DNA of 64,000 bases from a virus, in the IMG/VR virus record IMGVR_UViG_3300025113_000003, positions 1 through 64,000 of that record; one strand, 5' to 3'. The translations under genes and the position numbers were made by a program. Of the stretch, positions 4,280 to 58,391 are shown piece by piece. A model generated the notes under the pieces. It saw only the letters and a list, made by a program, of their open reading frames with translations, made no database searches and had not been told where the DNA came from. Numbering within the stretch: the first letter of the stretch is position 1; each line of letters begins with the position of its first letter.

Positions 4280-4285
4280 TCAGCC

Positions 4286-34050: not shown

Positions 34051-34992
34051 TCAGGCGCTCATCTTGGCTGGGATGGCGGCCTGCGGGTTGTAGCCGACCA
34101 GCTGGAAGTCATCGACGGTGTACTCATCCACCTCCTTGCGCTCCGATGTGATGCGCAGCCGAGGCAGCTCAGTCGGCTCGCGCAGCAGCTGCTTCTCAAC
34201 GGCGACGACGTGGTCCTTGTAGATGTGCGTATCACCAAGCACCATCGACAGGGTGCCCGCCTCAGCGCCAACGGTGTACGCAAGCAGGTGCGTCAGCAGC
34301 GCATAGGACGCGATGTTGAACGGCAGCCCGAGAAAGCTGTCAACGCTGCGCTGGTACATCTGGCAGCTCAGCTTGCTGTCGTTGCTGAGGTAGAACTGCG
34401 CGAACATGTGGCACGGCGGAAGCGCCATCTGGTTCAGCTCACCTGGGTTCCAGGCGGTGAGGATGATGCGGCGGTCGGTTGGGTTGGTGCGCAGCTTGTG
34501 GACCACCTGAGCGAGCTGATCGATCTGTGTCTGCTGGACCTTCGCACCGAAGTATGTCGTGCCGCCAGACCCGTCGTGGTGGTTCAGGTAGTCCTCATAG
34601 CTCTCGACCTTGGCGCTGCGCCAGGCGCGCCACTGCACCCCGTAGATGCGTCCCAGGTCACCCTCAAAGGAAGGCTTGAAGCTGGAACCGCTCGTCGCCT
34701 TTGCGTTGGCAGTCCAGATGGTCTCCTTGGCGGGGTCGCGGGTACCGTGGGTCAGCTCAGCGAGCCGGCGCTCGTCCTCCGAGCCCTCGATGAACCACAG
34801 CAGCTCAGCGACGATGGAGCGCCAAGGTAGCTTCTTGGTGGTCAGAAGCGGGAAGCCATCAGCGAGGTCGATGTTCAGCGAGGTGGCGAAGATGGCACGG
34901 GTACCGGTACCCGTGCGGTCGGCGCGGTCCTCACCCTTGTCGAGGATGTAGTGCAGCAGGTCGAGGTACTCGTGCTCGAAGGTGTAGTCCAT
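34051..34992 (-). CDS. thyA: Thymidylate synthase
   Basis: DRTGTGT, FPLLTTKK, ELLWF, ALPPCH, QRSVDSFLGLPFNIASY (dUMP-specifying Asn), GDTHIY. Confidence 0.97.
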   Translation of the reverse strand: MDYTFEHEYLDLLHYILDKGEDRADRTGTGTRAIFATSLNIDLADGFPLLTTKKLPWRSIVAELLWFIEGSEDERRLAELTHGTRDPAKETIWTANAKATSGSSFKPSFEGDLGRIYGVQWRAWRSAKVESYEDYLNHHDGSGGTTYFGAKVQQTQIDQLAQVVHKLRTNPTDRRIILTAWNPGELNQMALPPCHMFAQFYLSNDSKLSCQMYQRSVDSFLGLPFNIASYALLTHLLAYTVGAEAGTLSMVLGDTHIYKDHVVAVEKQLLREPTELPRLRITSERKEVDEYTVDDFQLVGYNPQAAIPAKMSA

Positions 34993-38109: not shown

Positions 38110-38553
38110 CTACGCAAGGTGCTTGCGGATGACGGCGTAGATCTCAGGCTCAACCGCCTTCCACTTCTGCCAGGTCTCGATGAGCTTCTCAACCTGGCGC
38201 TCCATGTTGATAAGCCCAAGCGGGCGACCGGACTCCTCGTCGTGAATGACGATGTAGCTAAACGCAGCGTTCGGTCCGGTTTTCTCTTGATTGTAGATGA
38301 TGTAGAGCTCCTCACCTAGGGTATCCAGCTCCTGCGATGGGTTGCGCAGCGACATATCTGGGTTGCGCCACGGACCGTCGCGCAGCGGCCGCTCAAAGTG
38401 CAGGTACTCCTTGGCTGGAGCAGCAGCGTAGCGATAGTAGAAACCGACCTTGTGGTGGCTCTCGTCAATGTAGGCGTCGCCCACCTCCACCAGCTGGCTG
38501 AGGTCGATCGTCCGACCCAGCAGCTTGTCGTAGTGGAGCGGACTCGAGAGCAT
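38110..38553 (-). CDS. Hypothetical protein
   Basis: Start MLSSPL coupled to topoisomerase stop (TGATG). Confidence 0.6.
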   Translation of the reverse strand: MLSSPLHYDKLLGRTIDLSQLVEVGDAYIDESHHKVGFYYRYAAAPAKEYLHFERPLRDGPWRNPDMSLRNPSQELDTLGEELYIIYNQEKTGPNAAFSYIVIHDEESGRPLGLINMERQVEKLIETWQKWKAVEPEIYAVIRKHLA

Positions 38554-39917: not shown

Positions 39918-39923
39918 ACTGCT

Positions 39924-39967
39924 ATTGTATCACGCTGGCGACCCGCGTGTTGATGAAAATGTGTAAC
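39924..39967 (-). promoter_or_regulatory. Early promoter TGA-TACAAT with GTTACA box; 6 nt before ATG
   Basis: attgta 39924-39929; tgtaac 39962-39967. Confidence 0.6.
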
Positions 39968-40116
39968 GCGTGTTACAGCAGGGACCTCACGAGATAGCCG
40001 AAGGCGAAGCTGATGACCATGAGAACGAGCAGTAGCGGGGCCAAGGTGCGGTGGGCACCGGTCATCCAGATCAGAATGAGCGCCCCCTTCAGGCTGTCAA
40101 TGAAGTGTCTCATGGG

Positions 40117-40323
40117 TCACCAGGTGGAGTAGTCCGTGACGTCCATCTCGAGGACCTCGCCCTTCGGCCCCTTCACAGTGACGGTGACCGAGCGGCCAAT
40201 GCCTGAGCTTGCCCTGAAGACGAGAGCGTAGTCGGCACCCGCCTCCATCAGCTCACGGGCCTTGCCTTCTAGGAAGCGCTTAACGCCCTTCTTCTCTTCC
40301 TTGGAAAGGGAAACGTAGCTCAC
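40117..40323 (-). CDS. Hypothetical protein
   Basis: GTG start (VSYVSL) coupled to upstream stop. Confidence 0.55.
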   Translation of the reverse strand: MSYVSLSKEEKKGVKRFLEGKARELMEAGADYALVFRASSGIGRSVTVTVKGPKGEVLEMDVTDYSTW

Positions 40324-40673
40324 GTGATGTCCCCTTCCAACATTCCGGTATCGACCATGCCCTCGCCCGGCGCACCCGCCGCAAAGATGCGCCCGTTCCA
40401 CAGCGCGTACTGATAGCCGGTCTGCATGCAGGTGGTGTACAGGTCCTGCGGCGTTGTAAGGAGCTTTGGCACGAAGACCAACTTCCAGGTAGGTGGGTCG
40501 AGGATCAGCTTCCTCTCTGCCTCTGCCCGAAGAAGCGCCCGTTTGGCGTCACTCAAGGCCTCCTCACACTGCCACACGTGCTGCTTTGCCGCCTCAACCG
40601 TCGCGGTGGCCTGGCTCAGCTTGGTCGATTGGGTTTCAGCGCTCATCTTTGGTTCCTTCTGGTCAGTCGACAT
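40320..40673 (-). CDS. Hypothetical protein
   Basis: ORF in operon between topoisomerase subunits. Confidence 0.6.
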   Translation of the reverse strand: MSTDQKEPKMSAETQSTKLSQATATVEAAKQHVWQCEEALSDAKRALLRAEAERKLILDPPTWKLVFVPKLLTTPQDLYTTCMQTGYQYALWNGRIFAAGAPGEGMVDTGMLEGDIT

Positions 40674-40959
40674 TGATGGTAACCCGGCGCTCGACCTTCG
40701 CCGGGATCACCTTGATGATGCGGTAGCTCTTTCGCGAGTAGCTGGCGTCGGTCTCCAGCAGCCACTTCTGTAGGACATCCTCGGCCTCGAACGCGATGTA
40801 GCTGATCACATTCGCGGACTCGGACGGATCTCCCTGGTCGTAACCAGGCACCATCACCGTGTCAGAGACAAGGGCAGCGAAGTGCGGAACCGAGGGAACA
40901 TCCTCTGCCGAGTGCACGTAGATGATGCCGTCTTGATTGAACTGCCCTGGCTGCCTCAT
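40663..40959 (-). CDS. Hypothetical protein
   Basis: ATGA-coupled to topoisomerase B subunit. Confidence 0.6.
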   Translation of the reverse strand: MRQPGQFNQDGIIYVHSAEDVPSVPHFAALVSDTVMVPGYDQGDPSESANVISYIAFEAEDVLQKWLLETDASYSRKSYRIIKVIPAKVERRVTINVD

Positions 40960-44789: not shown

Positions 44790-44929
44790 AGCTCCCTCAC
44801 CAACGCGCGCGAATTATAGCATTAGCGCACAGATAGCGCGCGCTGCTTCATGGTGTATTGTAGCTTGAGTGCCCCACAAAGTACACAGGGCAACCTGAGC
44901 TGCCCTGTAACAGCTGTTACAGGCCTGTC

Positions 44930-45664
44930 TTAGGCGGCGAGCAACGTGTGAGTGTAGGTGGTTGGTGGTGCGACCCTGGTGTTGCGCCACCTAATGGCGA
45001 TCTGAATGTCAGCGATGGCCTTTTCAGTGTTTTCACCTGTAACGATGGCGTCCCATGAAGAGGTGTTCTGCCAGCGGCGCTCGTCTCCAACGATAGACAG
45101 CAACCGACGGTGGTGCTCGGTGATAGCCGTGGCCACCTTCTTCTGTGCCGAGTCAGTTGACACACCGGCGAAGGCCCCCGAATAGCGGCTGCCTGAGGAG
45201 CTTGACACCTTGTCAATTGCATGCCATGAGTCATTGAGAGTGCGGTTAAGTAGGCGCTCCAACCGAAGGCTCTCCACTGCGTGAACGTAGATCTTGAAGA
45301 TGTCCCATCCATGTTCGTGGCACTTCTGCTCGTAGATGGCCAGGCCCTGCGGCTCAAGCACCACTATCGGCGCTACTGCTCCAGCCATCTTGTCAGCCAT
45401 CTCCTCATGCGTGACGCCGTAGCGGGTGCCGTTGAACTCGATGAGCTCAAAGAACTGACCGAGCTGCTCAAGGTTGTGCGACTGCGACTCGTTGATGAAG
45501 TAGTAGTCGACGCCTTCCTGTTCGCCTGGGCGAGGAACCCGCGTCGTCGTGCTCACGATGCGGCTGAAGATGTTCTGCTTTACCAGCTCATTGAGCAGGT
45601 AGGACTTGCCGCTGCAGGTGGGGGCTGTGATGGTGACGAGAGTGGGGTTGGTGAACTGACTCAT
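44930..45664 (-). CDS. gmk: Guanylate kinase-like nucleotide kinase
   Basis: TAPTCSGKS, IVSTTTRVPRPGEQEGVDYYF, FNGTRYG, LEPQG. Confidence 0.85.
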   Translation of the reverse strand: MSQFTNPTLVTITAPTCSGKSYLLNELVKQNIFSRIVSTTTRVPRPGEQEGVDYYFINESQSHNLEQLGQFFELIEFNGTRYGVTHEEMADKMAGAVAPIVVLEPQGLAIYEQKCHEHGWDIFKIYVHAVESLRLERLLNRTLNDSWHAIDKVSSSSGSRYSGAFAGVSTDSAQKKVATAITEHHRRLLSIVGDERRWQNTSSWDAIVTGENTEKAIADIQIAIRWRNTRVAPPTTYTHTLLAA

Positions 45665-46260
45665 GGATGTTTCCTTTTGCTTCTACCTTGATACCAATCC
45701 TCTCCAGGACTGGTGACGGTTCTTTGGTTGTTTGTTCCATTGGTCCACCACTTTGTTCCTGCTGTGGCAAGACCTGCTTTCATCTTAGTTTCTGCTGTAT
45801 GATATGAAAGTCGTCCGTCAATCCATCCTTCTGGACATGAGATAAATCGCTTGCTCACTGTGCCGTTGTTGCACCAAATTAACCTGCGCTCTTTCCATTT
45901 ACGACGTTGTCCTTCTGAAATATCCGGCCTAATACGTCCTTTCAATTTGGCGCTGTTTATCTTCCCAAGTCTCTGATAGAAACCGTTTTCTTGCTTCACT
46001 CGATGAGCCTCTTCAGCGCCCCTAGCACACATATCTCTAAACAGCTGCTGCTTTACTTCGTCAAAGTTCACGTAGAGACTTGCGTGAAGGAAATTTGCAG
46101 AAGCAAGATCCGCTTTCTTTCCATACGTTTCATAGAGCCGACGATGTGCAGCAATATGCTCTTCGATAGTTACGTATTCGATGTTGTCATCATCGTCTGT
46201 TCCACCTGCGTGTTTTGGAGTTTTGTGATGACGATGATAGCCTTTTATTGGTTTCTTCAT
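45661..46260 (-). mobile_element. Free-standing HNH homing endonuclease gene
   Basis: HRHHKTPKHAGG..DNI....EEHIAAH HNH motif; W.NNG..GW..GR and HTAETK NUMOD-like repeats; AT-rich relative to flanks; own TATAAATA. Confidence 0.85.
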
Positions 46261-46278
46261 AGCCCACCTCTTGCGGGC

Positions 46279-46286
46279 TATTTATA
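46279..46286 (-). promoter_or_regulatory. Perfect T4-type late promoter TATAAATA for the HNH gene
   Basis: tatttata on plus strand. Confidence 0.7.
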
Positions 46287-46289
46287 TGT

Positions 46290-47546
46290 CTATGTTGACA
46301 CACTCTTCAGGTTAAGCCAATCACGGGCTATTTTCAATGATTGAGCAATAACAATCCACATATCGAGATATTGATAGGTGCCGCAGCGGCCGATGAAGGT
46401 GACATGGTGCAGCGCCTCGGCCTTCTCCTTGTAGCGCTGGTAGAGCGCGCGGTGCGGGCAGTCAGGTAGGGACGTCTTGACTGGGTAGTACCGCTCCAGG
46501 TCGTTGTCCTTGTAGTCGCACGGCTCCTCGACCGTTAGCGTCGTCCAGTAGGGGTTGTCGCCGTGCACCGGCAGGTTCTTCCACTCGGTGACGCGCGTGT
46601 GCGGCCCGTCATGCGTGAAGTTAACGACTGGGGCTCCCTGAAAGGTAGGGACCGGCAGTGAGAAGGTGTGCATCTTGATGGACCGCCAGGGTAGCTCGCC
46701 AAGCTCGCAGTTGAAGTAGGTGTCGATCGGCTCAGAGGTGAAGACGTGATCAAACACCCGGTCCTTGATGCCGCACCGCGCGCACAGCCAGGCCTCGATG
46801 TCGGCTCCTGGCTGAACCAGCAGCTGACGAGAGAGCTCCAACCGTACAGTGATGTTCGGGTGATCCAGAATTCGACTGACCATCGCCGTGTAGCCGTCCT
46901 TAGGCAGGTACTGGTGCTTGTCCTTCGGAAAGTAGTGCCAGCTGCCGCTCTCAACGTTCGTCGGGATACGCGCAGCTACCGAGGCAGGTAGCTCCTCGAG
47001 CTCAAGGCCCCACATCTTCTTGGTATAGGGCGCGAAGAGGAGGTCACAGAGCTCCTTGCCAACGGAGTTCTCGACGTGTTGACGGGAGTTGGTGACCGGG
47101 TCGTGGTGAGTGACCAGAGTTTCAAGGAAGGCGGAATGGGCGCCCCGCCGAGCGCCAAAGCCACCGATGTCGTTGTGCCGCTCAGCGTACCACTGGGGGT
47201 GATCTTCTAACCACTCCTCGAACTGAATGTCCAGCACCTCCTCTACGGTGTCGTGGTTGATAGGCAGCGGAACGGTGATGCCATCCTTGAGCAGCGCCAG
47301 CACCCAGTGGTGATACGGTTCCCACTCGGTGAATCGAGACGCCCACTCTTGGACATCGTCGTTGGAGGTGTGCCAGAGGTGCGGTCCGTAGCGGTGTACC
47401 CGGATACCGTGCTCATTGACGTAGTCAAAGGCGTTACCAGCCACGTGGTCCCGCCTGTCGATGACCAGCACCGTGTGACCCGCCTCAGCAAGCTCGCGTG
47501 CCACAGTTGCACCGGCGAAGCCGGCACCTACCACAAGTACCTTCAT
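46290..47546 (-). CDS. glf: UDP-galactopyranose mutase
   Basis: VVGAGFAG, RDHVAGNAFD, HRYGPHLWHT, YTKKMWG, LPKDGYTAM, LPWRS, TRVTEWK, RYYPV, FIGRCGTYQYLDM. Confidence 0.95.
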   Translation of the reverse strand: MKVLVVGAGFAGATVARELAEAGHTVLVIDRRDHVAGNAFDYVNEHGIRVHRYGPHLWHTSNDDVQEWASRFTEWEPYHHWVLALLKDGITVPLPINHDTVEEVLDIQFEEWLEDHPQWYAERHNDIGGFGARRGAHSAFLETLVTHHDPVTNSRQHVENSVGKELCDLLFAPYTKKMWGLELEELPASVAARIPTNVESGSWHYFPKDKHQYLPKDGYTAMVSRILDHPNITVRLELSRQLLVQPGADIEAWLCARCGIKDRVFDHVFTSEPIDTYFNCELGELPWRSIKMHTFSLPVPTFQGAPVVNFTHDGPHTRVTEWKNLPVHGDNPYWTTLTVEEPCDYKDNDLERYYPVKTSLPDCPHRALYQRYKEKAEALHHVTFIGRCGTYQYLDMWIVIAQSLKIARDWLNLKSVST

Positions 47547-47854
47547 TCTTCTTCTCCGCAGAGCTTCACTATGGTCATTGTATCTGCTACGTACCACAGA
47601 CCGCCCTGACTTGCAGGTCGAGCGTGCCTGGTGTAGCCGTCAAACCTGACTCGAGCCCAGACCCGCCCCTTCTTACTGAGATGCGGTGCTAGCTTTCGGG
47701 CGCAGATGTGCCAGCCAGGTCGAAAGGCGTAGCCCTTCGTGGGGTGGCTCTCCGCCTGGTAGGTCTCACCGACCTCTAGCCGCTGGGATCGGTTGATGAA
47801 GAGAGGCCCCAGCGACCCGTCCCGGCGACGCCGGAGCAGCTTGTAGCCGAACAC
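47543..47854 (-). CDS. Hypothetical basic protein
   Basis: YKLLRRR.DGSLGPLFIN..HPTKGYAFRPGWH; coupled to glf. Confidence 0.65.
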   Translation of the reverse strand: MFGYKLLRRRRDGSLGPLFINRSQRLEVGETYQAESHPTKGYAFRPGWHICARKLAPHLSKKGRVWARVRFDGYTRHARPASQGGLWYVADTMTIVKLCGEEE

Positions 47855-48091
47855 TCAGATATCCTCGACCGCGTGCTCGATCTCCGCCTCGGTCAGCGGC
47901 ACCCCCAGCGCCGCCTGCAGCGCCGTGCAGACCATTCGGGCGGTGGCCAGCTCCCCGTGCTCGAGCAGGTAGTCATCGACGACGTTGAGGTCGAAGTTGA
48001 TGTAGGCCTTGCCGGTGTCGTGCTCGAAGAAGCCGAGCGTACGGACGCCGTCCTCGTCGTTGTAGACCTCTTTGTAGAACCGGTAGCTCAT
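47855..48091 (-). CDS. Hypothetical protein
   Basis: GGAGG RBS, ATGA-coupled. Confidence 0.6.
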   Translation of the reverse strand: MSYRFYKEVYNDEDGVRTLGFFEHDTGKAYINFDLNVVDDYLLEHGELATARMVCTALQAALGVPLTEAEIEHAVEDI

Positions 48092-49338
48092 TTTGATGCC
48101 TCCAGGACGAGTTGAAGCTCAGCGCGCTGTACAGATCTATCTAGTGGGTGGAGCTCGTATAGGCAGAATCGCTGCGTTGCAGCGATCTCCTTCAGCTCCG
48201 GGTCAGTCGCCACTGTCAGGTCGGTAGCCTTCAGGCCAAAGAACGGGTAGTCGACTCCATAGTAGACCCGCAGCTCCTTGTCGTCACCAATGAGGATTGA
48301 CCCCGCGTCGGCGCACTGCAGCGGTCGGGCCCGCCACCAGCCTGAACCGGCATGCTCGTAGCCCGGCATCAGGCAACCCCAGTCACGGGTAATGGTGATC
48401 ACCATGTCGTCCTCAGTCAGGCGCTTCTGGCTCTCGGCCTTTGAGCCGTAGAGGTCCACTGGCCAGGTGCCGATGAAGCCCTGCTCATCGTCCTTCGGGT
48501 TGCTCGTGTAGCCCTGCTTCTTCAACCACTTTTGGGTCTTCGACTGGACAAGGCTGGCGAAGTTGAAGCGGCGCTCCTTTTCAGGACGCGGGGACTGGGT
48601 GACGCTGAGAAGACTTGCCTTGAACGTCGGGTCCTCGGCGCCTTCATGACCTTCGTCGTTCCACATGCGGTTGCGGTGATACGGGTTCGGATTGTAGACA
48701 AAGAGGCGGCTGCGTGGGTAGCTGATCTTGTCGAACAGCAGGTGCGGGCCGTAGGCCTCGTTGTCGCCGAGGTGCTCAGTACGGAAGGCGCTGATGAGCA
48801 TGCGGTTCTTCATCGTCGTGATCGTCTTGATGGCGGCCATGTAGGCGTTGATATGCGGTACCTGCTCCTCGTACGTCGTCTTGTTCACGTCCAGAATGAA
48901 CTGCGCTAGCAGCTCCTTCGCGTCTGCGCACTTGGCCACACCTTTGAAGAGGTCAGGTACCTGCCAGTCGTCGAAGGCCAGGATGCAGTTGGGTCGATCA
49001 GCGATGGCCCACAGCCCGTTGAAGACGGTCGTGGCCACCAGCTGCCGCGGTCCGGCGATGAAGACGATCACCTCGTCGTAGCCGCTGAGGTCCTCGCCAA
49101 TGGTCACCTTGCGCTGCTCAACCTCGTAGCCCATGTCGGTCAGGCAGTTGAAGAGCGAGTAGTGCGACGGCACCACCTTCAGCTGCTGGCGCAGGTAGAA
49201 CTTGCGGGTGCACTGGTTGGCGTTGAAGCCGGTGATGAGGATCTTTGGCTTGGTCATGATCAGCTCCTGGGCTCGTTCTTCAATTGCGGTGCGTCGCCCT
49301 TCAGGCAGCGCGTCAAGGACGTCGGTCAGCGTTCTCAT
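48088..49338 (-). CDS. Putative GT-B glycosyltransferase (candidate DNA hmC glycosyltransferase)
   Basis: Two Rossmann-like halves: KILITG..L.DMGYEV..DLSGYDEVIVF..AFDDWQ, and VDLYG..WGCLMPGY..GSGWWRAR..Q.ADAGSIL; lies between galE and glf; alternative start 49257. Confidence 0.6.
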   Translation of the reverse strand: MRTLTDVLDALPEGRRTAIEERAQELIMTKPKILITGFNANQCTRKFYLRQQLKVVPSHYSLFNCLTDMGYEVEQRKVTIGEDLSGYDEVIVFIAGPRQLVATTVFNGLWAIADRPNCILAFDDWQVPDLFKGVAKCADAKELLAQFILDVNKTTYEEQVPHINAYMAAIKTITTMKNRMLISAFRTEHLGDNEAYGPHLLFDKISYPRSRLFVYNPNPYHRNRMWNDEGHEGAEDPTFKASLLSVTQSPRPEKERRFNFASLVQSKTQKWLKKQGYTSNPKDDEQGFIGTWPVDLYGSKAESQKRLTEDDMVITITRDWGCLMPGYEHAGSGWWRARPLQCADAGSILIGDDKELRVYYGVDYPFFGLKATDLTVATDPELKEIAATQRFCLYELHPLDRSVQRAELQLVLEASK

Positions 49339-50222
49339 ACGTTACGGAAAGCTGAGAGGCACATGTCAGAGAGGGTACGGGTGATGGCGGCGTGGGGGTA
49401 CAGGGACCTCGCATGGCAGATCATGATGTCGTCATCACCAGCGCGCCGGTCAGTGATGACGACCGGGAAGCTGGTGTTGGTCACGTGCTTCATCTCGTGG
49501 ATGACCTCCAGCACGCTGTAGCCCATGCCGGTGCCTAGGCATTCAAATGGCGTGTTGACTGGCCCGACCTCAACGGCGTTGGCGATGGAGGCGGCGATGT
49601 CCTGCACGTGGACGTAGTCACGAACGGCGGTACCGTCCTTGGTCGCGTAGTCGGTACCGAAGACCTTGACATCTCCGCGCTTACCACGCGCCGCCTCAGC
49701 GCAGATGCGAATGAGGTGCGTCGGCTGCCCTGTTGGTCGAATGCCAGGCGCCAGCCCTGACACGTTGTAGAAGCGGAAGATGGTGTGCCCGTCAAACCAG
49801 CGGGGCGTTGCCGCCGCCACGTCGGTGATGTAGCTCTCGCAGGCCACCTTGGTGCGCGCGTAGGGTGACGTGGGGTTGAAGGCGGTACCAGTCGAGGCGA
49901 AGATGAGGTGCGGTGTCCGCAGCTGCTCCAGCTCCATGAGCGAGGTCAGGTTGTTGTGCCAGTAGGTGTGTGGTTCCCGCGTGCTCAGCTCCACTGAGAT
50001 AAACGCCGCGAGGTGCACGATGGCGTCGTACTCGCTGCACAGCTCACCAAGCCCGCTCTGCACCGCGCGGTTAAGCAGCCGTCCCACGCGCTGGTGCACG
50101 AAGTCAAAGTTGACGTGGTCGCTTGAACCGTCGACCACGTCGACGCTGTGCCCACGGTTGACCAGCTCATCCACCACGTGCGCGCCGATGTAGCCCAGTC
50201 CACCTGTAACCAGTACCTTCAT
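49335..50222 (-). CDS. galE: UDP-glucose 4-epimerase-like SDR enzyme
   Basis: VLVTGGLGYIG, HLAAFISV, YARTK (YxxxK), FRFYNV, VFGTDYATKDGTAVRDYVHV. Confidence 0.9.
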   Translation of the reverse strand: MKVLVTGGLGYIGAHVVDELVNRGHSVDVVDGSSDHVNFDFVHQRVGRLLNRAVQSGLGELCSEYDAIVHLAAFISVELSTREPHTYWHNNLTSLMELEQLRTPHLIFASTGTAFNPTSPYARTKVACESYITDVAAATPRWFDGHTIFRFYNVSGLAPGIRPTGQPTHLIRICAEAARGKRGDVKVFGTDYATKDGTAVRDYVHVQDIAASIANAVEVGPVNTPFECLGTGMGYSVLEVIHEMKHVTNTSFPVVITDRRAGDDDIMICHARSLYPHAAITRTLSDMCLSAFRNV

Positions 50223-50305
50223 GTCATCTCCTTAGAGCCCAAACCCGGGCCCGCGCACCTACTTATCGCATTCTAAGCGAAAACCAATCTGACTGAGGCA
50301 CCATT

Positions 50306-50821
50306 TTATAGGTCGAGCGCCAGCTGCAGTACTCCCATTAGCTGGTATGGTTCCTTCGCGTGAAAGCGCTTGTGTGCCTGTGGGTGGTAGACAGTGGAAA
50401 CAGGAGCGTACTCGCTGAAGTTCCTGCTGAACCACTTGTTCGCATTACCACCGAGACAGACCACCAGCACTCCAGGATTGGCGTTCAGCTGAAGCTCCAC
50501 CAGCTTGGGATCCAGCGCAGTGCCATCCGCCAGCTTTGTGTTGAACCACAGCAGCACCGTCTCAGGTATGTGGTGCTCCACCAGCAGCTTGTTCAGCCAC
50601 AGGCTGCTGTTCTTCGTGCTGTAGAACGGCGTGTGGTGATAGCCAGGGGTGTTGGGCCGACCTGGCCCAGGCGTGTCCCCTAGCAGGATGACCTCAGTTG
50701 ACCGCTTTACGCCCTTCATCGCCTCGATGTAGCGCTTACGCCGGTGCTGCAGGCGCTTCGAGATGCCGGTCTGGATCTCACGGTCAAGCTTGTCAAAGGC
50801 AGCACCAAACAGCGAGGCCAT
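50306..50821 (-). CDS. Uracil-DNA-glycosylase-superfamily-like protein
   Basis: VILLGDTPG, PF..S..WL, WFN, VVCLG..A, VYHPQ match the UDG-fold motif order. Confidence 0.6.
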   Translation of the reverse strand: MASLFGAAFDKLDREIQTGISKRLQHRRKRYIEAMKGVKRSTEVILLGDTPGPGRPNTPGYHHTPFYSTKNSSLWLNKLLVEHHIPETVLLWFNTKLADGTALDPKLVELQLNANPGVLVVCLGGNANKWFSRNFSEYAPVSTVYHPQAHKRFHAKEPYQLMGVLQLALDL

Positions 50822-51039
50822 CAGAGCCGCCCCACCTCATCGGCGACCGATTGGTCAGCCTGGATGAAGGCGATCTTTTCACGCATCTCGTCATCGCTGT
50901 AGATGTACATGAACTTGTCCTGCTTCAGCTGCCGCTTGGGGTCAGCGTGATCGTAGATGAAGGTGATGTAGCCCTGCTCCTTCGCCGCATGCATCCGCAG
51001 CGCCGTGTCATCATGAGTGGAGATGATGACTACCTTCAC
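50821..51039 (-). CDS. Hypothetical protein
   Basis: Overlap-coupled on both sides. Confidence 0.6.
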   Translation of the reverse strand: MKVVIISTHDDTALRMHAAKEQGYITFIYDHADPKRQLKQDKFMYIYSDDEMREKIAFIQADQSVADEVGRL

Positions 51040-51611
51040 TCGAGCGCTTCAGCGAGGACCCAGTCCCTGGGCTTGAAGCCACCAAGCGCGGGGTCCGTGA
51101 CGCAGATGATCCGTTTGTCGCGGATGATGGAGCGCCTGAATGCAGCTAGAAAGCGGTTCTGCTCCTCTTCGCGCTGCTGCAGCTCGCCTAGACTCTGCCC
51201 GTCGTCGACGAAGTGGCTAGAGACATGGAAGTCCTCAGTCAGCAGGATGAGCCGTATGTCGGCTGCGTCAAGGTGGTGCCGTTCTTCGAAGTCAAAGACG
51301 TACTCACCGCTGTACGCACGGTACATGGGCGCGTACACCATCTCACCTAGGTGCCAGCGATCAAAGATGAGACGGGCACCCGAGCGCGCCATGATCATCG
51401 AGTTGCGGAAGCCCTCCTGCTGGTAGTGGTAGGCAGCTAGACTACCAGGCGGCACCCCTTCGATCGGCGAGGTACCAGCGTAGGCATCTAGCTTCTTCGG
51501 CTTGGAGAAGTGGATGACCTGGTAGTAGCCAAGGCGATTGATGATGCCCTCGATGAGGGTGCTCTTACCGAGGCGGTCGATTCCCTCGATGGCGTAGACG
51601 GCGTGGGCCAT
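51036..51611 (-). CDS. dNMP (thymidylate-kinase-like) kinase, candidate hm-dCMP kinase
   Basis: IEGIDRLGKST P-loop; IFDRWHLGEMVYAPMYR. Confidence 0.82.
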   Translation of the reverse strand: MAHAVYAIEGIDRLGKSTLIEGIINRLGYYQVIHFSKPKKLDAYAGTSPIEGVPPGSLAAYHYQQEGFRNSMIMARSGARLIFDRWHLGEMVYAPMYRAYSGEYVFDFEERHHLDAADIRLILLTEDFHVSSHFVDDGQSLGELQQREEEQNRFLAAFRRSIIRDKRIICVTDPALGGFKPRDWVLAEALE

Positions 51612-51613
51612 GC

Positions 51614-51922
51614 TTAGACCTCGATCGTGATGTAGTGATCGCCAGGGGTGCTCTTGAAGACAATCATGCCACGATCATCCTCAACAGTTACGTGCGGATC
51701 AACGGTGTCGTAGGCATCACCTAAGAAGTCAGAGCCGTACACATCTTCGATCTGCGTAATGATCTCGAAGGCGGCGTTGGCGTATGTGCCCTTCCCGAGG
51801 CGGCAGGAAGATACCAGGGCGGCGATCAGCTCAAGCTGCTCATCGGTAAGATTGAGCTGGCTTCCACCAGTACCGATGATCACTGTGTCGCTGTCCTCAT
51901 CAGGGCGTGATTGGATCTTCAT
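51614..51922 (-). CDS. Acidic hypothetical protein
   Basis: ATGA-coupled. Confidence 0.6.
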   Translation of the reverse strand: MKIQSRPDEDSDTVIIGTGGSQLNLTDEQLELIAALVSSCRLGKGTYANAAFEIITQIEDVYGSDFLGDAYDTVDPHVTVEDDRGMIVFKSTPGDHYITIEV

Positions 51923-52932
51923 ACGAATCCTACTCCTCGTCGGTTCTTGTTACTAGAAGGCTGAGAGTTGAAGAGCTCAGCCAAAGTAAACTCACTGCCA
52001 TCTGGCAGCTCACGGTCAGATCCCAGCTCCGCGTAGACGGCCTGCGCCTCCACTCGGGTCAGGGGGCGGAACTGCTGCACATCGAAGCAGCGACCCTCGC
52101 GCAGCAGCGCGGGATCGATATCGTGGATGTTGGGTAGGTTGGTGGAGAAGACCAGCTTCTTGTCGGCCGCTGAGATGAGGCCGTCCGACAGGTTCAGGAA
52201 CCGGTGCATCATCGTGTTGCCGTCCTGACGGCTGTCGAGGAAGCTGTCGGCGTCCTCCATGATGAGGAAGCGGCACTCGTCCTCGATGAAGCCAGCGAAG
52301 AAGTCGTCGGCACCCAGGACCTTCTCGTCGTAGGCCACCTTCGCGTTGCCGCCGGCCTGGTGGATCAGGTTCTTGATGAAGGTCGTCTTGCCAGTCCCGG
52401 GTGGGCCGATGAGGATGAGGACGTTGGCCTCGCTGTTCAGGTAGTCGTCGATGTACTGGCTCATCGAGCGATCGAGCCAGGGGTAGGCCGCCTGAACCGC
52501 CGCGCGGTAGTTCAGCGGCACCGAGATGGTATCGCCGCGGGTGTTGTAGACCCATTCGATCAGGTTCTCGGCGCGCTTGAAGTTGGCGTCGAAGTAGGTC
52601 TCCCACTTCTTGACCCAGGCGACGTCACCGGTAAAGGTCACCAGCACCTTGCCGCGAGAGGCCTCAACCACCAGGTTGCCCTCTCGACAGGGGACGAGAA
52701 CCTTCAGGTGCCCGAAGAAGGTATACGACGGAAAGCGCATGCGCTCGATCCAGTCAGCCAGCTTGAACTCAGCTGGCGTGATCCAGGTGTTGTGCTTCTC
52801 CAGGGTCTGCCGCCCGGCCAGGTGGCGGGTACGAAGCAGGTCGGCGTTGATCCAGTCCTCAGACCCGTACACCCCAAGGATTACTTCATTCTTAGGCGTG
52901 ATTTCCGGTTTGAAGAGCGGGTAGTCATCCAT
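51919..52932 (-). CDS. AAA+ ATPase
   Basis: LIGPPGTGKT, LIMEDAD, FLNLSDG, STN..IDPALLREGR; start 52932 or 53043. Confidence 0.88.
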   Translation of the reverse strand: MDDYPLFKPEITPKNEVILGVYGSEDWINADLLRTRHLAGRQTLEKHNTWITPAEFKLADWIERMRFPSYTFFGHLKVLVPCREGNLVVEASRGKVLVTFTGDVAWVKKWETYFDANFKRAENLIEWVYNTRGDTISVPLNYRAAVQAAYPWLDRSMSQYIDDYLNSEANVLILIGPPGTGKTTFIKNLIHQAGGNAKVAYDEKVLGADDFFAGFIEDECRFLIMEDADSFLDSRQDGNTMMHRFLNLSDGLISAADKKLVFSTNLPNIHDIDPALLREGRCFDVQQFRPLTRVEAQAVYAELGSDRELPDGSEFTLAELFNSQPSSNKNRRGVGFV

Positions 52933-53067
52933 TGGGTGTTCCCATTTTCTCTGGTTATGGCGGCGCGTGCGACGAGTGCGGCGCGAGCTCCTTACGAGGC
53001 GCCTGGTGTCAAAGTCAATCAGTGGCTTGGCTCCAAACGGCATATGTCCTATTCTAATTTATTGGGC

Positions 53068-54825
53068 TCAGTCGGCGTCAGTCGAATTGAGGTTGGAGGT
53101 GTAGGAGGTCTGGAACTCGTTCGCCCAGACGTTGTCCTTCCCGGTCCAGAGCCGCTGGATGCCGGTGTCCAAGGCGTAGGTAACCGCATGGTCTTCCGAG
53201 GATCGCACTGACCGACCAGCTCCCTGCACGATCTTCATGAGGGTGGTCAGCGAGTAGATGTCAGGGTACCGGTCAAGGATGACCTTGATGCGCTTGTCGC
53301 CCAGCGAGGCGAAGGGCGCCTTCACGATGACCTGGAAGCGGCTCAGGTCGCCAGGCAGGTCGATGCCCTCAAAGCCGGAGGGCGTCAGCATGACCGCTGG
53401 CCCAGCGGTGTAGGCCTTGAAGTCAGCGAGCACGTCGGCCAGCTTCTCGCCGCGCAGGTGCTCGAAGATGCGGTAGGACGGGCTCATTCCGCGCAGAGTA
53501 GCAGCGACGCTCTCGACGACCGCGAAGCTAGGCGCCAGCACGATGCCGCGGTGCCCCTGTTTCACGTGGTGGTCCACGATCTGCCAGGCAGTGGCGCACA
53601 GCTTCTTCACCGTTTCGGGCTGCTTCATGCTGCTGTAGTTGAGGGCCTGCGGCTTGAAGAAGACCATCCGCTTGCTCTCACGCGGAAACGACGGCTCTAA
53701 GCGGATGCCGATGGTGTCGCCCGGCAGCGTCATCGTGCGCTTGGCGTACGCCTCGCTCACCGTTGCCGACATCAGGAGGTTGTGCTCAGCGTTGTCAAGC
53801 GCCTCGAACATGTCACCCACGAAGATGGGCTTGACGCTGAGCTCATCCTCCGCCTGCCCCTTCTTGACGTCACGCGGCTTGTGTTCGAAGACATGTGGGT
53901 ACTCGAAGAGGAAGAGGTCGTCGATCTTGCAGCCCAGGTTGTAGAACTTCTTCGAGAGCCGCTGAAGCTTGATGAACTTAGCCGGCTGCCGGATGCTCCG
54001 CTCCGCCGCCTGCTTAGCCGCCTCGCTGATCGCGGTGTAGGTGTCAAGCAGGACCTGCAGCCACTTCAGGTACGACCCGTCCTCGTCGCTGATCTTCCCT
54101 CGAACGAGAGCCTCACGCACCGCCTTCAGGTTGCGGAAGACGTCGGTGTGTCCCAACGTCAGGTGCTCGTTGACCTCCTCAGCGAACTGGTTGAGCCGCT
54201 TCTCAGAGACGTAGATGGCGTTGTGCTCAACGAAGAGGTCGTTCAGCAGGTGCGCCTCATCGAAGACCGTCAGGGTGCGCCGCGGCATCGGTGTCGTCGA
54301 GTACATGCGATCGATGAAGTAGAACGCGTAGTTGGTGATGATGTGCCGCGCCCCCGCCTTCCGAGCCCGTGAGACCTGGTACTCGCACCCACCGCAGTAG
54401 AGGTCGATGAGGTCCTGCGCACCGGTCTTGCGGAAGATGGGAATGGCGCAGGCCTCAGCGGTCTGCGGCTCCTCAGGGGTCGAGAGGGCCTTGCACTCGT
54501 AGTTGCCGGCGCCCTTCAGGAGCAGGAAGCCGTTCTCGGCGCGGTCACCGAACGTCTGGAAGTACTGGTCCAGCAGGACGTTGGTGGCCGACAGGAGGAA
54601 GGTCGCGTTGGCCTTGGTATCTGGGTAGCGAATGGAGTGCAGGACCTCACCGACCACGGTGCCGATGATGGACTTGCCGGTGCCGGTGGGAGCGGAGAGC
54701 ACCACGTTCTTGGCCTTGTCGTCCAGGAAGGCGGACACCACGCGGTCCACGCGCTCGGCCTGGTGGTCGCGTGGCGTGAAGCCGAGGCGGGTGAAGGCCT
54801 CGTGGATGGGCTGCTCGTATCTCAC
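53068..54825 (-). CDS. DinG/XPD-family SF2 helicase
   Basis: APTGTGKS, four Cys (Fe-S), ITNY, DEAH, MSAT, EGIDL, QGAGRSVRS; GTG start coupled to upstream TGA. Confidence 0.9.
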   Translation of the reverse strand: MRYEQPIHEAFTRLGFTPRDHQAERVDRVVSAFLDDKAKNVVLSAPTGTGKSIIGTVVGEVLHSIRYPDTKANATFLLSATNVLLDQYFQTFGDRAENGFLLLKGAGNYECKALSTPEEPQTAEACAIPIFRKTGAQDLIDLYCGGCEYQVSRARKAGARHIITNYAFYFIDRMYSTTPMPRRTLTVFDEAHLLNDLFVEHNAIYVSEKRLNQFAEEVNEHLTLGHTDVFRNLKAVREALVRGKISDEDGSYLKWLQVLLDTYTAISEAAKQAAERSIRQPAKFIKLQRLSKKFYNLGCKIDDLFLFEYPHVFEHKPRDVKKGQAEDELSVKPIFVGDMFEALDNAEHNLLMSATVSEAYAKRTMTLPGDTIGIRLEPSFPRESKRMVFFKPQALNYSSMKQPETVKKLCATAWQIVDHHVKQGHRGIVLAPSFAVVESVAATLRGMSPSYRIFEHLRGEKLADVLADFKAYTAGPAVMLTPSGFEGIDLPGDLSRFQVIVKAPFASLGDKRIKVILDRYPDIYSLTTLMKIVQGAGRSVRSSEDHAVTYALDTGIQRLWTGKDNVWANEFQTSYTSNLNSTDAD

Positions 54826-54977
54826 AGGTGCTTCCCGAACCAGCAGTAGACCGCGAACCACTTGAAGCCAGGGCCACGCGTATCATACACGCGGTTGTGG
54901 AACCAGTACAGCTTCCAGTCACGCGAGAGCTGAATGTGCTTCGACCCGAAGCGGATGTTGAACAGCAGGTTGCTCAT
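54822..54977 (-). CDS. Small aromatic-rich hypothetical protein
   Basis: MSNLLFNIRFG...; bridges the hydroxymethylase stop and helicase start. Confidence 0.5.
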   Translation of the reverse strand: MSNLLFNIRFGSKHIQLSRDWKLYWFHNRVYDTRGPGFKWFAVYCWFGKHL

Positions 54978-55954
54978 TCGTGCTCGGCCTGGTCGAAGAT
55001 GGTGTGGAAGGCTTTCTCGTCGTTCCCGAAGAAGGCCCGCACGAGGGTACGCCAGTACGGGGACAGCATCTGGAAGCTCATGCACTCGTAGAAGTCGAAG
55101 TCCTCAGGAGCGCCGGCTGCCTGCCACGCGGCCTCGGTGCCCACCAACCCAGTGAGAATTCGGTCATTGAACGCGTCCATCGGGATCATGCTGACGTCGA
55201 TGGCACGCTCAGTCGCGATGATCTTCTCAGCCATCTCGAAGTGGCGGTCGTAGATGTGCATCGACCCGGCGTTGTGGAAGTAGAAGCCCAGCTTGAGGTC
55301 GGGGTAGGTCGCCTTCAGCTGCAGCAGCATCGCTTCCTGCAGCATCGTGAACTGGAAGACGTCGTTCGTGAAGCCTAGGATGACGTCGTTGGACCGCATG
55401 CTGACGATCAGGTGCAGGCGGCTGTCGCGGATCAACCACTGCAGCGTCAGCGTGCAGGGCACGTCCTTGTTGCCGGCATGGCGATCATGCGGCACGTGGA
55501 TGTTCATGATCGCCTGGCGGGTGTCCTTGTCGCGTTCGAGCAGCGCCGCTGTCTCGTTCCACTGGTTGATCGGTTCTGACTGTGGACCAATGTACCGGTC
55601 TGTGCCTACGAAAGCAGGGGCCTTGGAATGGCCGAAGAGCCGGTGCCCGTAGTTGGAGTTCACGGTGCCGTCGGAGTTGCGGATGCTGTCCCAGAACTTG
55701 GCGTACGGCAGGATGCCCTTGGGGTCCGCAGAGCCTGAGATGTACCAGATGAACTCGCCAAGCAGGTACTTGGTGCTGGTCTTTCGCGCCGGGAAGGTGA
55801 TGACCCGGTTGCGGGGGTCGGTCAGCGTGATGTTGTAGTTGATGAGCTCCCGGGTCGTGGTGCCGCGCGGGTGGGCGACCGAACCGTTGGTCATCAGGTT
55901 GGATAGACAGAGCCTGAAGTCGTTGTTCAGGTAGAAGGTCGGGACTTGCTCCAT
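54974..55954 (-). CDS. dCMP hydroxymethylase-type thymidylate synthase paralogue
   Basis: PRG..TRE, E.IWY, VNSNYG, D.DTRQA, DVPCT, MRSNDVILGFTNDV (Asp at the specificity position), GSMHIY. Confidence 0.85.
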   Translation of the reverse strand: MEQVPTFYLNNDFRLCLSNLMTNGSVAHPRGTTTRELINYNITLTDPRNRVITFPARKTSTKYLLGEFIWYISGSADPKGILPYAKFWDSIRNSDGTVNSNYGHRLFGHSKAPAFVGTDRYIGPQSEPINQWNETAALLERDKDTRQAIMNIHVPHDRHAGNKDVPCTLTLQWLIRDSRLHLIVSMRSNDVILGFTNDVFQFTMLQEAMLLQLKATYPDLKLGFYFHNAGSMHIYDRHFEMAEKIIATERAIDVSMIPMDAFNDRILTGLVGTEAAWQAAGAPEDFDFYECMSFQMLSPYWRTLVRAFFGNDEKAFHTIFDQAEHE

Positions 55955-56029: not shown

Positions 56030-56051
56030 GTGGGACCCCGAGAGGTCCCAC
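56030..56051 (-). terminator. Rho-independent terminator
   Basis: GTGGGACC-N6-GGTCCCAC followed by CTTTTCTT on minus strand. Confidence 0.65.
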
Positions 56052-56159: not shown

Positions 56160-58391
56160 ATGACAACCAAGAACTTCTTCGGCGGTGCCATCATCAACTA
56201 CGGTTCGGTACTACCGTCCGTTGGCGGTGTTCCTGACGGCGCGCTGTTCTTCAAGACCGGCACCAGCCCGGGCATCTACATCTTCAGCCTCAACATAGAT
56301 GCCAACAGCACCAACCTAGGCAACCAGCCTGCGCAGACCTGGCAGCAGCTCGTTTCAACCGCTTCCAGCGGTTCAGATGCTGCCTCGCTCGGTGGTCAAC
56401 CAGCCAGCGCCTACTACCGCAACAACCTGTCAGGACTGAGCCCCACAACCGCTGACCCAACGGCAAGCTTCTGGATCGATACGACGTCTCCAGCCATCAA
56501 GTCCACCGTAAACACGGCCAGCCTTCCTGGCAATTTCCCATCAACGACAGGGGCAACCTGGACCTTCCTGTCAAGCATGAATCTTGGCGGTACGGTTGAT
56601 AACTACCAGCGCGCCCTTGACCTGCACAAGAGCTATGCTGGTGCTGCACACGGTTTCTACCTGCGTTCCTACAGCAGCGCTGGTATCCCAAACAACTGGG
56701 AACGCATCATCACCGACGCCACCATGGGTCCTGGGTCAGGACTTGACGCTGACCTGCTCGACGGCGAGGACGGGCTCTTCTACCGCAACGCCAGCAACAT
56801 CAACGCCGGCACTCTAGCCACCGCGCGTGGTGGCACTGGGGTCAGTCACACCTCGCTGACGCAGGGTGCGGTCATGTATGCCGCGTCGGCCACCACCATT
56901 CAGGACTCTGCCGTTGGCGCAGCAACCTCAGGATCAGGCACCAACCAGAACTGGCAGGTGCTGACCTCAGGGGGTGGAGCCGCTCCAGCGTGGGTGAACT
57001 CCACAGGGCTAAACGTAGCATTTGCCACCAACGCTGCCTTTGCCAGCTCAGCGACGACCGCGACGACCGCCACAACGGCGCTAACAGCCAACGCAGTCGC
57101 GTGGACAGGTATCACAGGTCTACCTTCTGCTCAGCAGAGCTGGACAGATTTGCCGGCTGCTGGTTTCGACACCCGAGCCGGTGCGGCGCTGTTCTATGAC
57201 ATGGGCAACATCGCTGCTCTGTCAATGAACCCATCGCAGTTTGTACCTGGAACCCTGAGTGGCTTTGATGCCTACAGCACCTCAGATATGGGCCAATACC
57301 AGGTCGGCCTAACAGTCGTTGGACTGGGCGGCGCCGGGCGCCGGGCGGTGCAGCTTGCTGCCAACTGGAACTTCGAAGAAGCGGCACCAAGCGGGCTTCG
57401 CTTCCGTGTCAACGACGACACAGGAACCGCTGGGGCGTGGGGAGCGTTTAGAACGCTTTGGGACAACGGTAACTTGAACGCCCTCTCACAGCTGACCAAC
57501 GACCAAGGGTTCATAACCGGAGCATCTCTGGCAAACTACCTTGACAAGACGACGGCAACGGCGCAGTCGGTCGTCAGCAACGTCACGTTCAATAACGACA
57601 TCAGCGTTGGTGATCGCGCCACTGCTAACAGCTTGGCGGTGACTGGCGGTGCGGGAATTGGTGGAGTTTCAATACCTGGTGTTGGTAGCTTGAACGTGGG
57701 AGCAAACATTCTTGCTTTCGGCAACATCAGCGCTCAGGGGAACCTAAACACAACTGACAACGTATACGCCAGCGGTGGATCAAGCGGTATAGTTGCCTAC
57801 GGGGCAAGCGGGATGGTGCACGCAGGCGTTTCAGCCGCGCACGGCGGTGGCGGAGGCTCAGGAGCCATCCGTATGCAGGGGTCAGGGTCAGCGAACTCAG
57901 GATATATCGAGTTCTATGCCTCCAATGGCACCTCACAGACGCGCACCAGCTACATCGGAACCTCAACGTTTTCCACTCAAGATGCTGGTACGTTGACCTA
58001 CTCAGCTGGGCTCCACAGCTTCGCTGGAGATATCTCTACCAACGGCAACGTCACCGCCTACTCCTCTGACGCCCGCCTGAAGGAAAACGTGACGGTCATC
58101 CCAGACGCCATCAAGAAGGTAAAGAAGCTAGGTGGCTACGAGTTTGATTGGAAGGAGCGCCTCTGCGAGCAGGTCGGTTTTCAACCAGCGCAGCGGCACG
58201 AGCACGGGCTGCTGGCGCAGGAAGTTGAGCAGGTAATGCCTGACGCGGTGACAGCTGCAGCGTTCAACTCTGACTACAAGACGGTGCGCTATGAGCGGCT
58301 CGTGGCGCTACTGGTCGCCGCCATCAATGAGCAACAGGAGCAGATAGCTGCGCTTCAGCAGCAGGTAACTGAGCTGGCGAATGGCGACTAA
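56160..58391 (+). CDS. Tail fibre protein with C-terminal intramolecular chaperone (peptidase S74)
   Basis: GSGLDADLLDG motif; YSSDARLKENV..HGLLAQEVEQVMPDAV..YERLVALL then coiled coil. Confidence 0.9.
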   Translation: MTTKNFFGGAIINYGSVLPSVGGVPDGALFFKTGTSPGIYIFSLNIDANSTNLGNQPAQTWQQLVSTASSGSDAASLGGQPASAYYRNNLSGLSPTTADPTASFWIDTTSPAIKSTVNTASLPGNFPSTTGATWTFLSSMNLGGTVDNYQRALDLHKSYAGAAHGFYLRSYSSAGIPNNWERIITDATMGPGSGLDADLLDGEDGLFYRNASNINAGTLATARGGTGVSHTSLTQGAVMYAASATTIQDSAVGAATSGSGTNQNWQVLTSGGGAAPAWVNSTGLNVAFATNAAFASSATTATTATTALTANAVAWTGITGLPSAQQSWTDLPAAGFDTRAGAALFYDMGNIAALSMNPSQFVPGTLSGFDAYSTSDMGQYQVGLTVVGLGGAGRRAVQLAANWNFEEAAPSGLRFRVNDDTGTAGAWGAFRTLWDNGNLNALSQLTNDQGFITGASLANYLDKTTATAQSVVSNVTFNNDISVGDRATANSLAVTGGAGIGGVSIPGVGSLNVGANILAFGNISAQGNLNTTDNVYASGGSSGIVAYGASGMVHAGVSAAHGGGGGSGAIRMQGSGSANSGYIEFYASNGTSQTRTSYIGTSTFSTQDAGTLTYSAGLHSFAGDISTNGNVTAYSSDARLKENVTVIPDAIKKVKKLGGYEFDWKERLCEQVGFQPAQRHEHGLLAQEVEQVMPDAVTAAAFNSDYKTVRYERLVALLVAAINEQQEQIAALQQQVTELANGD

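Follow-up and report, generated by a model that had tools for sequence, protein, structure and literature searches.

A co-oriented phage gene run that probably encodes galactofuranosylation of 5-hydroxymethylcytosine in DNA

Introduction

Which restriction, CRISPR and type IV defences a phage escapes or triggers depends on the glycosylated cytosines in its DNA. To our knowledge, only glucose on 5-hydroxymethylcytosine (5hmC), and arabinose or galactose-glucose on 5-hydroxycytosine (5hoC), have been genetically worked out so far. The DNA of Rhizobium phage RL38J1 carries galactose-glucose chains on 5-hydroxycytosine, and the UDP-galactopyranose mutase (UGM) Glf encoded by that phage has been proposed to supply uridine diphosphate (UDP)-galactofuranose (Lee et al. 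2026, PMC13326640). This galactosyl-5-hydroxycytosine is the nearest precedent for the pathway described here, which is encoded by a run of genes reading from position 55954 down to position 44930 of the window, that is, the first 64 kb of the 92,868-bp IMG/VR virus record IMGVR_UViG_3300025113_000003 (G+C 60%). The run probably encodes a pathway for glycosylated 5-hydroxymethylcytosine in phage DNA, with galactofuranose (Galf) as the base-proximal sugar.

Glycosyltransferases from metaviromes have been found to put a hexose on 5hmC in an epimerase-dependent manner, neither a mutase nor a furanose donor being mentioned (Pyle et al., 10.1101/2023.12.21.572611), and a WbbI-like galactofuranosyltransferase has been speculated to exist in Enterococcus phages (Duerkop et al. 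2016). Our full-text literature searches found no description of galactofuranosyl-hydroxymethylcytosine. A first-pass annotation of the window, made from the sequence without searches, had named no described Galf-modified phage base as known to it; this stands for Galf on 5hmC, but a galactose-modified cytosine fed by Glf had already been proposed for RL38J1 (on 5-hydroxycytosine; PMC13326640), so that the idea of a phage Glf feeding a modified cytosine is not without precedent.

Results

From position 55954 to position 44930, all sizeable open reading frames (ORFs) are on the minus strand, and every feature of the run given below has this orientation. The first-pass annotation had claimed a co-oriented run of seven genes, among them a thymidylate synthase (TS) paralogue of the dCMP-hydroxymethylase type and a putative GT-B transferase, with a canonical ThyA encoded separately. 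Matches to Pfam, phrog, NCBIfam and the PDB, together with AlphaFold2 models, recovered all of these at the coordinates given below: the TS paralogue, a nucleotide kinase, a protein with a uracil-DNA glycosylase (UDG) fold, a GalE-type epimerase, the transferase, Glf and a guanylate-kinase-like protein. In addition to these seven genes, the run contains a DinG-like helicase, an AAA ATPase, an HNH nuclease and four small ORFs.

The proposed pathway would start with the TS paralogue converting dCMP into 5-hydroxymethyl-dCMP, as suggested by its active-site residues. Following the precedent of T4, one or both of the phage kinases, together with the host nucleoside diphosphate (NDP) kinase, would then produce the triphosphate, to be incorporated by the phage polymerase. 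For the donor, the GalE-type epimerase would convert UDP-glucose to UDP-galactopyranose, and Glf would contract the ring to give UDP-galactofuranose; both enzymes are assigned to their families by sequence matches, and their substrates are presumed. The GT-B enzyme would move the furanose onto the hydroxymethyl group of 5hmC in DNA, a step to which its fold, its gene neighbourhood and the domain fusions of its family all point. By analogy with T4, DNA glycosylated in this way would be protected against restriction enzymes and CRISPR nucleases, and we infer such an anti-restriction and anti-CRISPR role for the modification.

The TS paralogue (54974..55954; PF00303, 91.5 bits) is the predicted dCMP hydroxymethylase, or 5-hydroxymethyl-dCMP synthase. 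Its best PDB matches are the CMP hydroxymethylase MilA (E = 1.6e-29) and the T4 dCMP hydroxymethylase (E = 3.7e-20), all true thymidylate synthases ranking lower. In E. coli ThyA numbering, which is used throughout for positions 143, 146, 169 and 177, it has Asp143, Cys146, Asp169 and Asp177, that is, the signature of T4 gp42 and MilA, with the catalytic Cys146 aligned within a DVPC motif. According to Lee et al. (NAR 2026, PMC13326640), the N177D change gives specificity for dCMP, an acidic residue at position 143 (L143D/E) leads to a hydroxymethyl and not a methyl product, and D169N is diagnostic of the flavin-dependent 5-hydroxy-dCMP synthases of RB69, DLP3 and RL38J1, all nine D169N enzymes assayed in that study having yielded 5hoC. 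The window paralogue has an RSND motif where RB69 gp48 and the paralogue of Morganella phage Rgz1 read RSQN. Because Asp169 is thus retained, the product is predicted to be 5-hydroxymethyl-dCMP instead of 5-hydroxy-dCMP.

Two other enzyme types were considered for the TS paralogue. A 5-hydroxy-dCMP synthase of the RB69 gp48 type would have Asn169, and the residue found is Asp169. Thymidine hypermodification, which involves a dUMP hydroxymethylase, 5-hydroxymethyluracil DNA kinase (5-HMUDK) and aGPT-Pplase, was rejected, as it would go with Asn177 and the residue found is Asp177; moreover, family scans of the run proteins gave no match to the aGPT-Pplase family.

It is very improbable that the paralogue makes 5-hydroxy-dCMP or 5-methyl-dCMP and not 5-hydroxymethyl-dCMP. 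Asp169 and Asp143 are present exactly as in T4 gp42 and MilA, 5hoC was the product of every one of the nine D169N enzymes tested, and a methyl product would leave the transferase with no acceptor. These arguments have to be set against the fact that the D169N rule rests on a single recent study, and against the affinities of the phage, whose topoisomerase II large subunit identifies Xanthomonas phages as the closest cultured relatives (at most 53% identity). Xanthomonas phage XP12 uses 5-methylcytosine. The separate ThyA (34051..34992, minus strand) is a canonical thymidylate synthase with Leu143, Asp169 and Asn177 (PF00303, 325.6 bits).

Both enzymes that would provide the sugar donor have clear best matches in the PDB. 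Glf (46290..47597) matches PF03275 with 171.6 bits and PF13450 with 63 bits, it combines a GLF domain with the N-terminal FAD-binding Rossmann motif, and all 13 of its PDB matches are UGMs, starting from E = 3e-66. The GalE-type UDP-hexose 4-epimerase (49335..50222; PF01370) keeps the Y-x3-K motif, and its 30 best PDB matches are, without exception, UDP-glucose/galactose 4-epimerases.

The gene at 48088..49257 encodes a GT-B glycosyltransferase of 389 residues from a new family (phrog_14998), which the fold of its AlphaFold2 model, its synteny and the fusions of its family lead us to predict as a DNA 5hmC galactofuranosyltransferase. If translation began at the ATG further upstream, at 49338, the protein would be longer by 27 residues. 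It has no Pfam or NCBIfam match, and it has 712 homologues at E <= 1e-5 in a collection of clusters at 90% identity and matches 455 representative clusters in a library at 50% identity. The AlphaFold2 model, built from an alignment of 111 sequences, has a predicted local distance difference test score (pLDDT) of 95.6 and a predicted template modelling score of 0.93, and it shows that this orphan protein has a GT-B fold. Foldseek placed T4 beta-glucosyltransferase (BGT) at the top of the PDB matches (E = 5.7e-7), and an independent all-against-representatives VIA search again ranked it first (Z 17.2, root mean square deviation 3.6 Å over 291 residues), the two proteins being alike in fold at 12% sequence identity. 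PimA (Z 15.9), SenB (15.3) and T4 alpha-glucosyltransferase (15.2) complete the top four, and more than 40 GT-B chains have Z > 10. The leaning of the model toward the folds of DNA glucosyltransferases is real but narrow. A DDWQ motif, nearly invariant in the family, closes the fourth strand of the N-domain, presumably at a position similar to that of the general base Asp100 of T4 BGT. Searches of the contig with the GT1 and GT2 families found no further glycosyltransferase.

The gene neighbourhood was compared among 39 IMG/VR loci encoding a relative of the transferase at 41-80% identity. In 37 of them, glf is the gene directly next to the transferase, 1.0-1.7 kb downstream. A TS paralogue is encoded 1-7.6 kb upstream on the same strand in 35 of the loci, and all 35 of these paralogues have Asp143, Cys146, Asp169 and Asp177, that is, they are of the gp42 type. 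An epimerase gene stands beside the transferase at 21 of the 39 loci. One locus, for instance, has the order hydroxymethylase, dCMP deaminase, transferase, glf, epimerase, C5 DNA methylase, UvsX and gp41-type helicase. A glf gene of any kind is present in only 89 of 50,697 phage records, and the arrangement of transferase, glf and TS paralogue is far beyond chance. The first-pass annotation had made its reading depend on the co-occurrence of glf with the hydroxymethylase in related phages, and this co-occurrence is what the loci display, as do cultured phages (see below). The adjacency of glf (37/39) is tighter than that of the epimerase (21/39), which points to the product of Glf as the donor, and UDP-galactofuranose is predicted as donor from this neighbourhood.

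Domain fusions provided a second line of evidence. Among the 150 matches listed of the 455 representatives, 15 are long members of the transferase family (750-1,409 residues). Seven of these, all metagenomic, were scanned (P0156, P0159, P0167, P0169, P0171, P0198 and P0216), and in every one the transferase is preceded on its N-terminal side by a C5 cytosine DNA methylase domain; in two of the seven, a UDG domain is placed between methylase and transferase as well. Set against the family profile, the transferase portion of one fusion gave a match at E = 1e-64. The fusions tie the transferase family to the C5 position of cytosine in DNA, independently of gene order. In two of the seven fusion proteins, an intein with a LAGLIDADG endonuclease is located inside the methylase.

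Cultured phages were surveyed by tblastn with the transferase (40 records). A homologue adjoins glf in Aeromonas phage 25 and its relatives (Aes508 and phiAS4 among the carriers), Erwinia phage FBB1, Actinomycetia phage DSL-LC01 and phage C48C1, and a gp42-type TS paralogue is encoded by each of phage 25, FBB1 and DSL-LC01. According to the annotation in the phage 25 record, neither gene of the pair is conserved in Aeromonas phage 44RR2.8t. No Rhizobium or Agrobacterium phage was matched in this search. Phage C48C1 (Kyanoviridae) is without a TS paralogue and has a Tet/JBP dioxygenase gene (L001:7580-8998) directly upstream of the transferase-glf pair. Apart from TS paralogues, the known source of 5-hydroxymethylpyrimidines in DNA is the Tet/JBP dioxygenases.

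Is it conceivable that the sugar genes are unrelated to DNA, that is, that the transferase, GalE and Glf act on virion proteins or host surface glycans while the TS paralogue makes bare 5hmC? Cell-envelope glycans are the usual destination of Glf products, and a phage Glf was interpreted as a host-benefit gene in an earlier genome paper (PMC6630229). We nevertheless find this explanation hardly credible, given that the transferase-glf pair is lodged among genes of nucleotide and DNA metabolism across many lineages and stands behind a Tet/JBP DNA oxygenase in C48C1, that the transferase family is fused to DNA methylase domains, and that no lipid-carrier transferase, flippase or polymerase is found among the scanned genes of the run.

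Two side branches of the transferase family bear on the nature of the donor. Gp40 of Morganella phage Rgz1 (Gualtarvirus; L005:5995-7062) is a full-length homologue (hhalign E = 3e-41), encoded between the genes for an arabinose-5-phosphate isomerase and an NDP-sugar transferase, and the TS paralogue of Rgz1 has the Asn169 signature of the 5-hydroxycytosine type, as in RB69. The Rgz1 product is likely arabinofuranosyl-5-hydroxycytosine. The family profile of the transferase showed no similarity to either half of RB69 gp46:47 by hhalign, and BLASTP of the Rgz1 homologue against RB69p047, the N-terminal half of gp46:47, gave no match; we therefore do not claim homology with the first arabinosyltransferase of the RB69 type. 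In Gordonia phages such as Phendrix (L053, L054), the transferase gene is found beside two more glycosyltransferase genes and a MazG-like gene, and the TS paralogue is of the gp42 type. No Gordonia phage was among the glf matches listed. Gordonia hosts make UDP-galactofuranose for their arabinogalactan. Both branches would fit a transferase family that uses furanose donors.

Two nucleotide kinases are encoded in the run. The TMK-like (thymidylate kinase-like) P-loop kinase (51036..51611; 191 residues; phrog_761, E = 1.2e-10; weak Pfam match) belongs to the same family as RB69p045, the unassigned 'nucleotide kinase' of the RB69 arabinosylation cluster (hhalign of the family profile against RB69p045, probability 92, E = 6e-7), and it matches the PDB thymidylate kinase 1tmk at E = 6e-4. 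As a result of this homology, the architecture of the cluster parallels that of known cytosine-glycosylation clusters. The second kinase, of the guanylate-kinase family (44930..45664; PF00625, 61.9 bits), matches PDB guanylate kinases from E = 4e-15, and its gene comes after glf in close relatives as well.

Between the TMK-like kinase and the epimerase, 50306..50821 encodes a protein of 171 residues that belongs to the UDG superfamily by its modelled fold (AlphaFold2 pLDDT 92.2). The protein itself has no Pfam match; PF03167 is found in its homologues at 50-56% identity. The top Foldseek matches of the model are family-4 UDG, UdgX and SMUG1, and in the VIA search Z values of 8.4-8.8 were reached by seven chains with a UDG fold, namely five glycosylases, vaccinia D4 and a phage DNA polymerase by its N-terminal domain, versus about 5 for unrelated folds. 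Motif A (GDTPG; G-x-x-P-G) and motif B (HPQ; H-P-x) are conserved in the family. The family profile matched no PDB sequence, for the UDG domain in fusion protein P0167 it gave a marginal match (probability 21), and phmmer with the fusion UDG domains found no match over the retrieved loci. In phage DSL-LC01, kinase and UDG-fold module form one protein of 331 residues (L007:182-1174), encoded directly upstream of the hydroxymethylase, which indicates that the two window genes form a split pair. This pair might be a 5-hydroxymethyl-dCMP kinase equipped with a domain for nucleotide binding, might repair 5hmC after deamination, or might be a kinase acting at the DNA level.

The last of these options leads to another explanation, namely that the pair phosphorylates flipped-out 5hmC in DNA, in the manner of 5-hydroxymethyluracil DNA kinase, and that part of the 5hmC receives a non-sugar group beside or in place of glycosylation. 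The fusion in DSL-LC01 and its position directly upstream of the hydroxymethylase would suit such an activity, the UDG fold is a base-flipping DNA module, and the structural neighbours in the Atlas include viral proteins of 311-340 residues with a thymidylate-kinase domain. Yet the family scans revealed no aGPT-Pplase, pyridoxal phosphate (PLP) or radical S-adenosylmethionine (SAM) enzyme in the run, the TMK-like kinase family also accompanies the purely glycosylated cytosines of RB69, and the kinase/UDG-fold pair is limited to jumbo-phage relatives and DSL-LC01, being missing from most transferase-glf loci. We thus regard phosphorylation of 5hmC in DNA as quite unlikely.

Returning to glycosylation, a UDG-fold module is found fused to the transferase or to a TMK-like kinase in other phages. 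More tentatively, and with clear reservations, it could be imagined that the transferase represents a widespread, undescribed family of DNA furanosyltransferases, which would place Galf on 5hmC where it is encoded beside glf and probably D-arabinofuranose (D-Araf) on 5-hydroxycytosine in Gualtarvirus phages, whose homologue is encoded in the arabinose cluster. Its partner would be a UDG-fold module by which the modified cytosine is flipped out or read, without excision of the base.

The remainder of the run is made up of genes for DNA-metabolic and small proteins. The DinG/YoaA-like helicase (53068..54861; PF13307, PF04851; NF053712, 80.9 bits) keeps its position in close relatives, and its role is probably in replication or repair and not in the modification chemistry. 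It is followed by the AAA+ ATPase (51919..53043; PF00004; phrog_14322, E = 7e-62) and by a 102-residue ORF (51614..51922), which has no family match and is kept in relatives L014, L015, L026 and L050. Of the other small ORFs, one of 72 residues (50821..51039) has no family match and is weakly conserved among relatives, one of 78 residues (47855..48091) is likewise without family match, and one of 103 residues (47543..47854; phrog_12224, E = 3e-33) has a 73% identical copy at the same place in L014 and L050. An HNH homing-type endonuclease gene (45661..46260; phrog_655, E = 4e-7) separates glf from the guanylate-kinase-like gene as an insertion, and it is missing at the corresponding place in L014, L026 and L050. 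HNH genes also trail glf in phage C48C1 (L001:11103-11732) and at locus L031, where the product is 65% identical to that of the window. Terminator-like hairpins are located upstream of the run (56030..56051; 9-pair stem followed by a T run) and directly past its last gene (44884..44909; 11-pair stem).

CheckV estimates the completeness of the record at about 26%, and the same gene block occurs in two relatives (L026 and L017), whose lengths are 349,660 bp (97% complete) and 358,444 bp (100% complete, with terminal repeats), so that the record is a fragment of a jumbo phage. The contig represents about 26% of a genome of roughly 350 kb, too little to bear on full replacement of cytosine. Megablast of the whole run against the 50,697 phage records gave no match, i.e. 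there is no close phage at the DNA level among them. Elsewhere in the window are genes for a double AAA MoxR-like ATPase with a DUF2201 metallopeptidase-like partner (1712-6085), a T4-type RNA ligase (18393-19532), a DnaJ homologue (35591-36571), both topoisomerase II subunits (38553-42932) and a 743-residue tail fibre with an S74 chaperone domain (56160-58391).

Discussion

The interpretation of the run as a furanosyl-hydroxymethylcytosine pathway, first put forward in the initial annotation, is supported in silico by the hydroxymethylase-type TS paralogue, by the GT-B fold of the transferase and by a transferase-glf pair that travels with enzymes making 5-hydroxymethylpyrimidines in many unrelated phages. 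A number of observations weigh against it. Glf scores just under the TIGR00031 cut-off (293.8 versus 303.75 bits). The epimerase, with 193 bits for TIGR01179, is under the equivalog cut-off of 262, so that its substrate may be a hexose or an N-acetylhexosamine. Some bacterial Glf homologues also handle UDP-N-acetylgalactosamine (UDP-GalNAc) or UDP-L-arabinose. MilA, which hydroxymethylates CMP and not dCMP, outscores T4 gp42 as a match to the TS paralogue, so that the sugar specificity of the latter is taken from context. With regard to the transferase, a search of the PDB with its family profile gave no sequence match up to E = 1, and the lead of T4 BGT over the other GT-B enzymes is small (Z 17.2 versus 15.9). 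Finally, searches of the contig for MazG, dUTPase and dUTPase_2 were empty, that is, no dCTPase was seen, an absence that is uninformative at about 26% completeness; in the complete relatives, the dCTPase search gave sub-threshold MazG matches only.

The sugar is the part of the pathway on which several of these points converge. The pathway and its DNA target could be the same and the sugar another one, if Glf produced UDP-GalNAcf or UDP-L-Araf, or if the epimerase product, a pyranose, were what the transferase uses, with Glf serving a second step. The score of the epimerase under the GalE equivalog cut-off leaves room for another substrate, donors appear to vary within the transferase family, as the Rgz1 homologue is encoded in a cluster with D-arabinose-5-phosphate isomerase and NDP-sugar genes, and relatives encode further glycosyltransferases. 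We consider a different sugar unlikely all the same, as glf adjoins the transferase gene more often than the epimerase gene does and both sugar enzymes match hexose enzymes best. Galactofuranose thus remains the sugar that we favour.

If true, a furanose on 5hmC would be a new base, and both enzymology and epigenetic tools would gain a new family of DNA glycosyltransferases. A long-standing gap would find its explanation as well, namely T4-like Aeromonas phages that have gene 42 and no glucosyltransferase, Aeromonas phage 25 being among the phages reported to have genes 42 and 56 without a glucosyltransferase (Petrov et al. 2010). The same transferase-glf pair is present in cultured Aeromonas and Erwinia phages, which makes the prediction directly testable.

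Compared with the glucosyl-5hmC pathway of the T-even phages (T4 gp42, gp1, gp56, and alpha- and beta-glucosyltransferase), the window phage likewise encodes its own nucleotide kinases and a predicted dCMP hydroxymethylase of the TS family whose active-site signature agrees with that of gp42, retains a canonical ThyA alongside, and has a GT-B transferase whose nearest solved structure is the T4 beta-glucosyltransferase. However, whereas T4 relies on host UDP-glucose, the window phage would make its own donor, predicted to be UDP-galactofuranose, with the GalE-type epimerase and Glf. Furthermore, no similarity to GT63 or GT72 enzymes can be detected in the sequence of its transferase, its kinases belong to the TMK and guanylate-kinase families and not to the gp1 family, a UDG-fold partner is present in the run, and no dCTPase was seen in the fragment.

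The likeness to the clusters of RB69, DLP3 and RL38J1 (PMC13326640) lies in the combination of a TS paralogue, a TMK-like kinase, a GT-B transferase and sugar-nucleotide enzymes. Glf is encoded by RL38J1 too, whose base-proximal sugar is galactose, and RB69 and DLP3 use furanose sugars, as predicted for the window phage. In contrast to all three, the window paralogue keeps Asp169, so that the predicted acceptor is 5-hydroxymethylcytosine and not 5-hydroxycytosine, and the run has no arabinose pathway.

With the MT/5mYOX(TET)/GT clusters of metaviromes (Pyle et al., bioRxiv 10.1101/2023.12.21.572611), the run shares a glycosyltransferase and an epimerase, and the hexose would likewise be placed on 5hmC in DNA. 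The scheme of those clusters is matched by phage C48C1 and by those transferase-family members that are fused to a methylase, whereas in the window phage 5hmC would be made before replication, by the TS paralogue.

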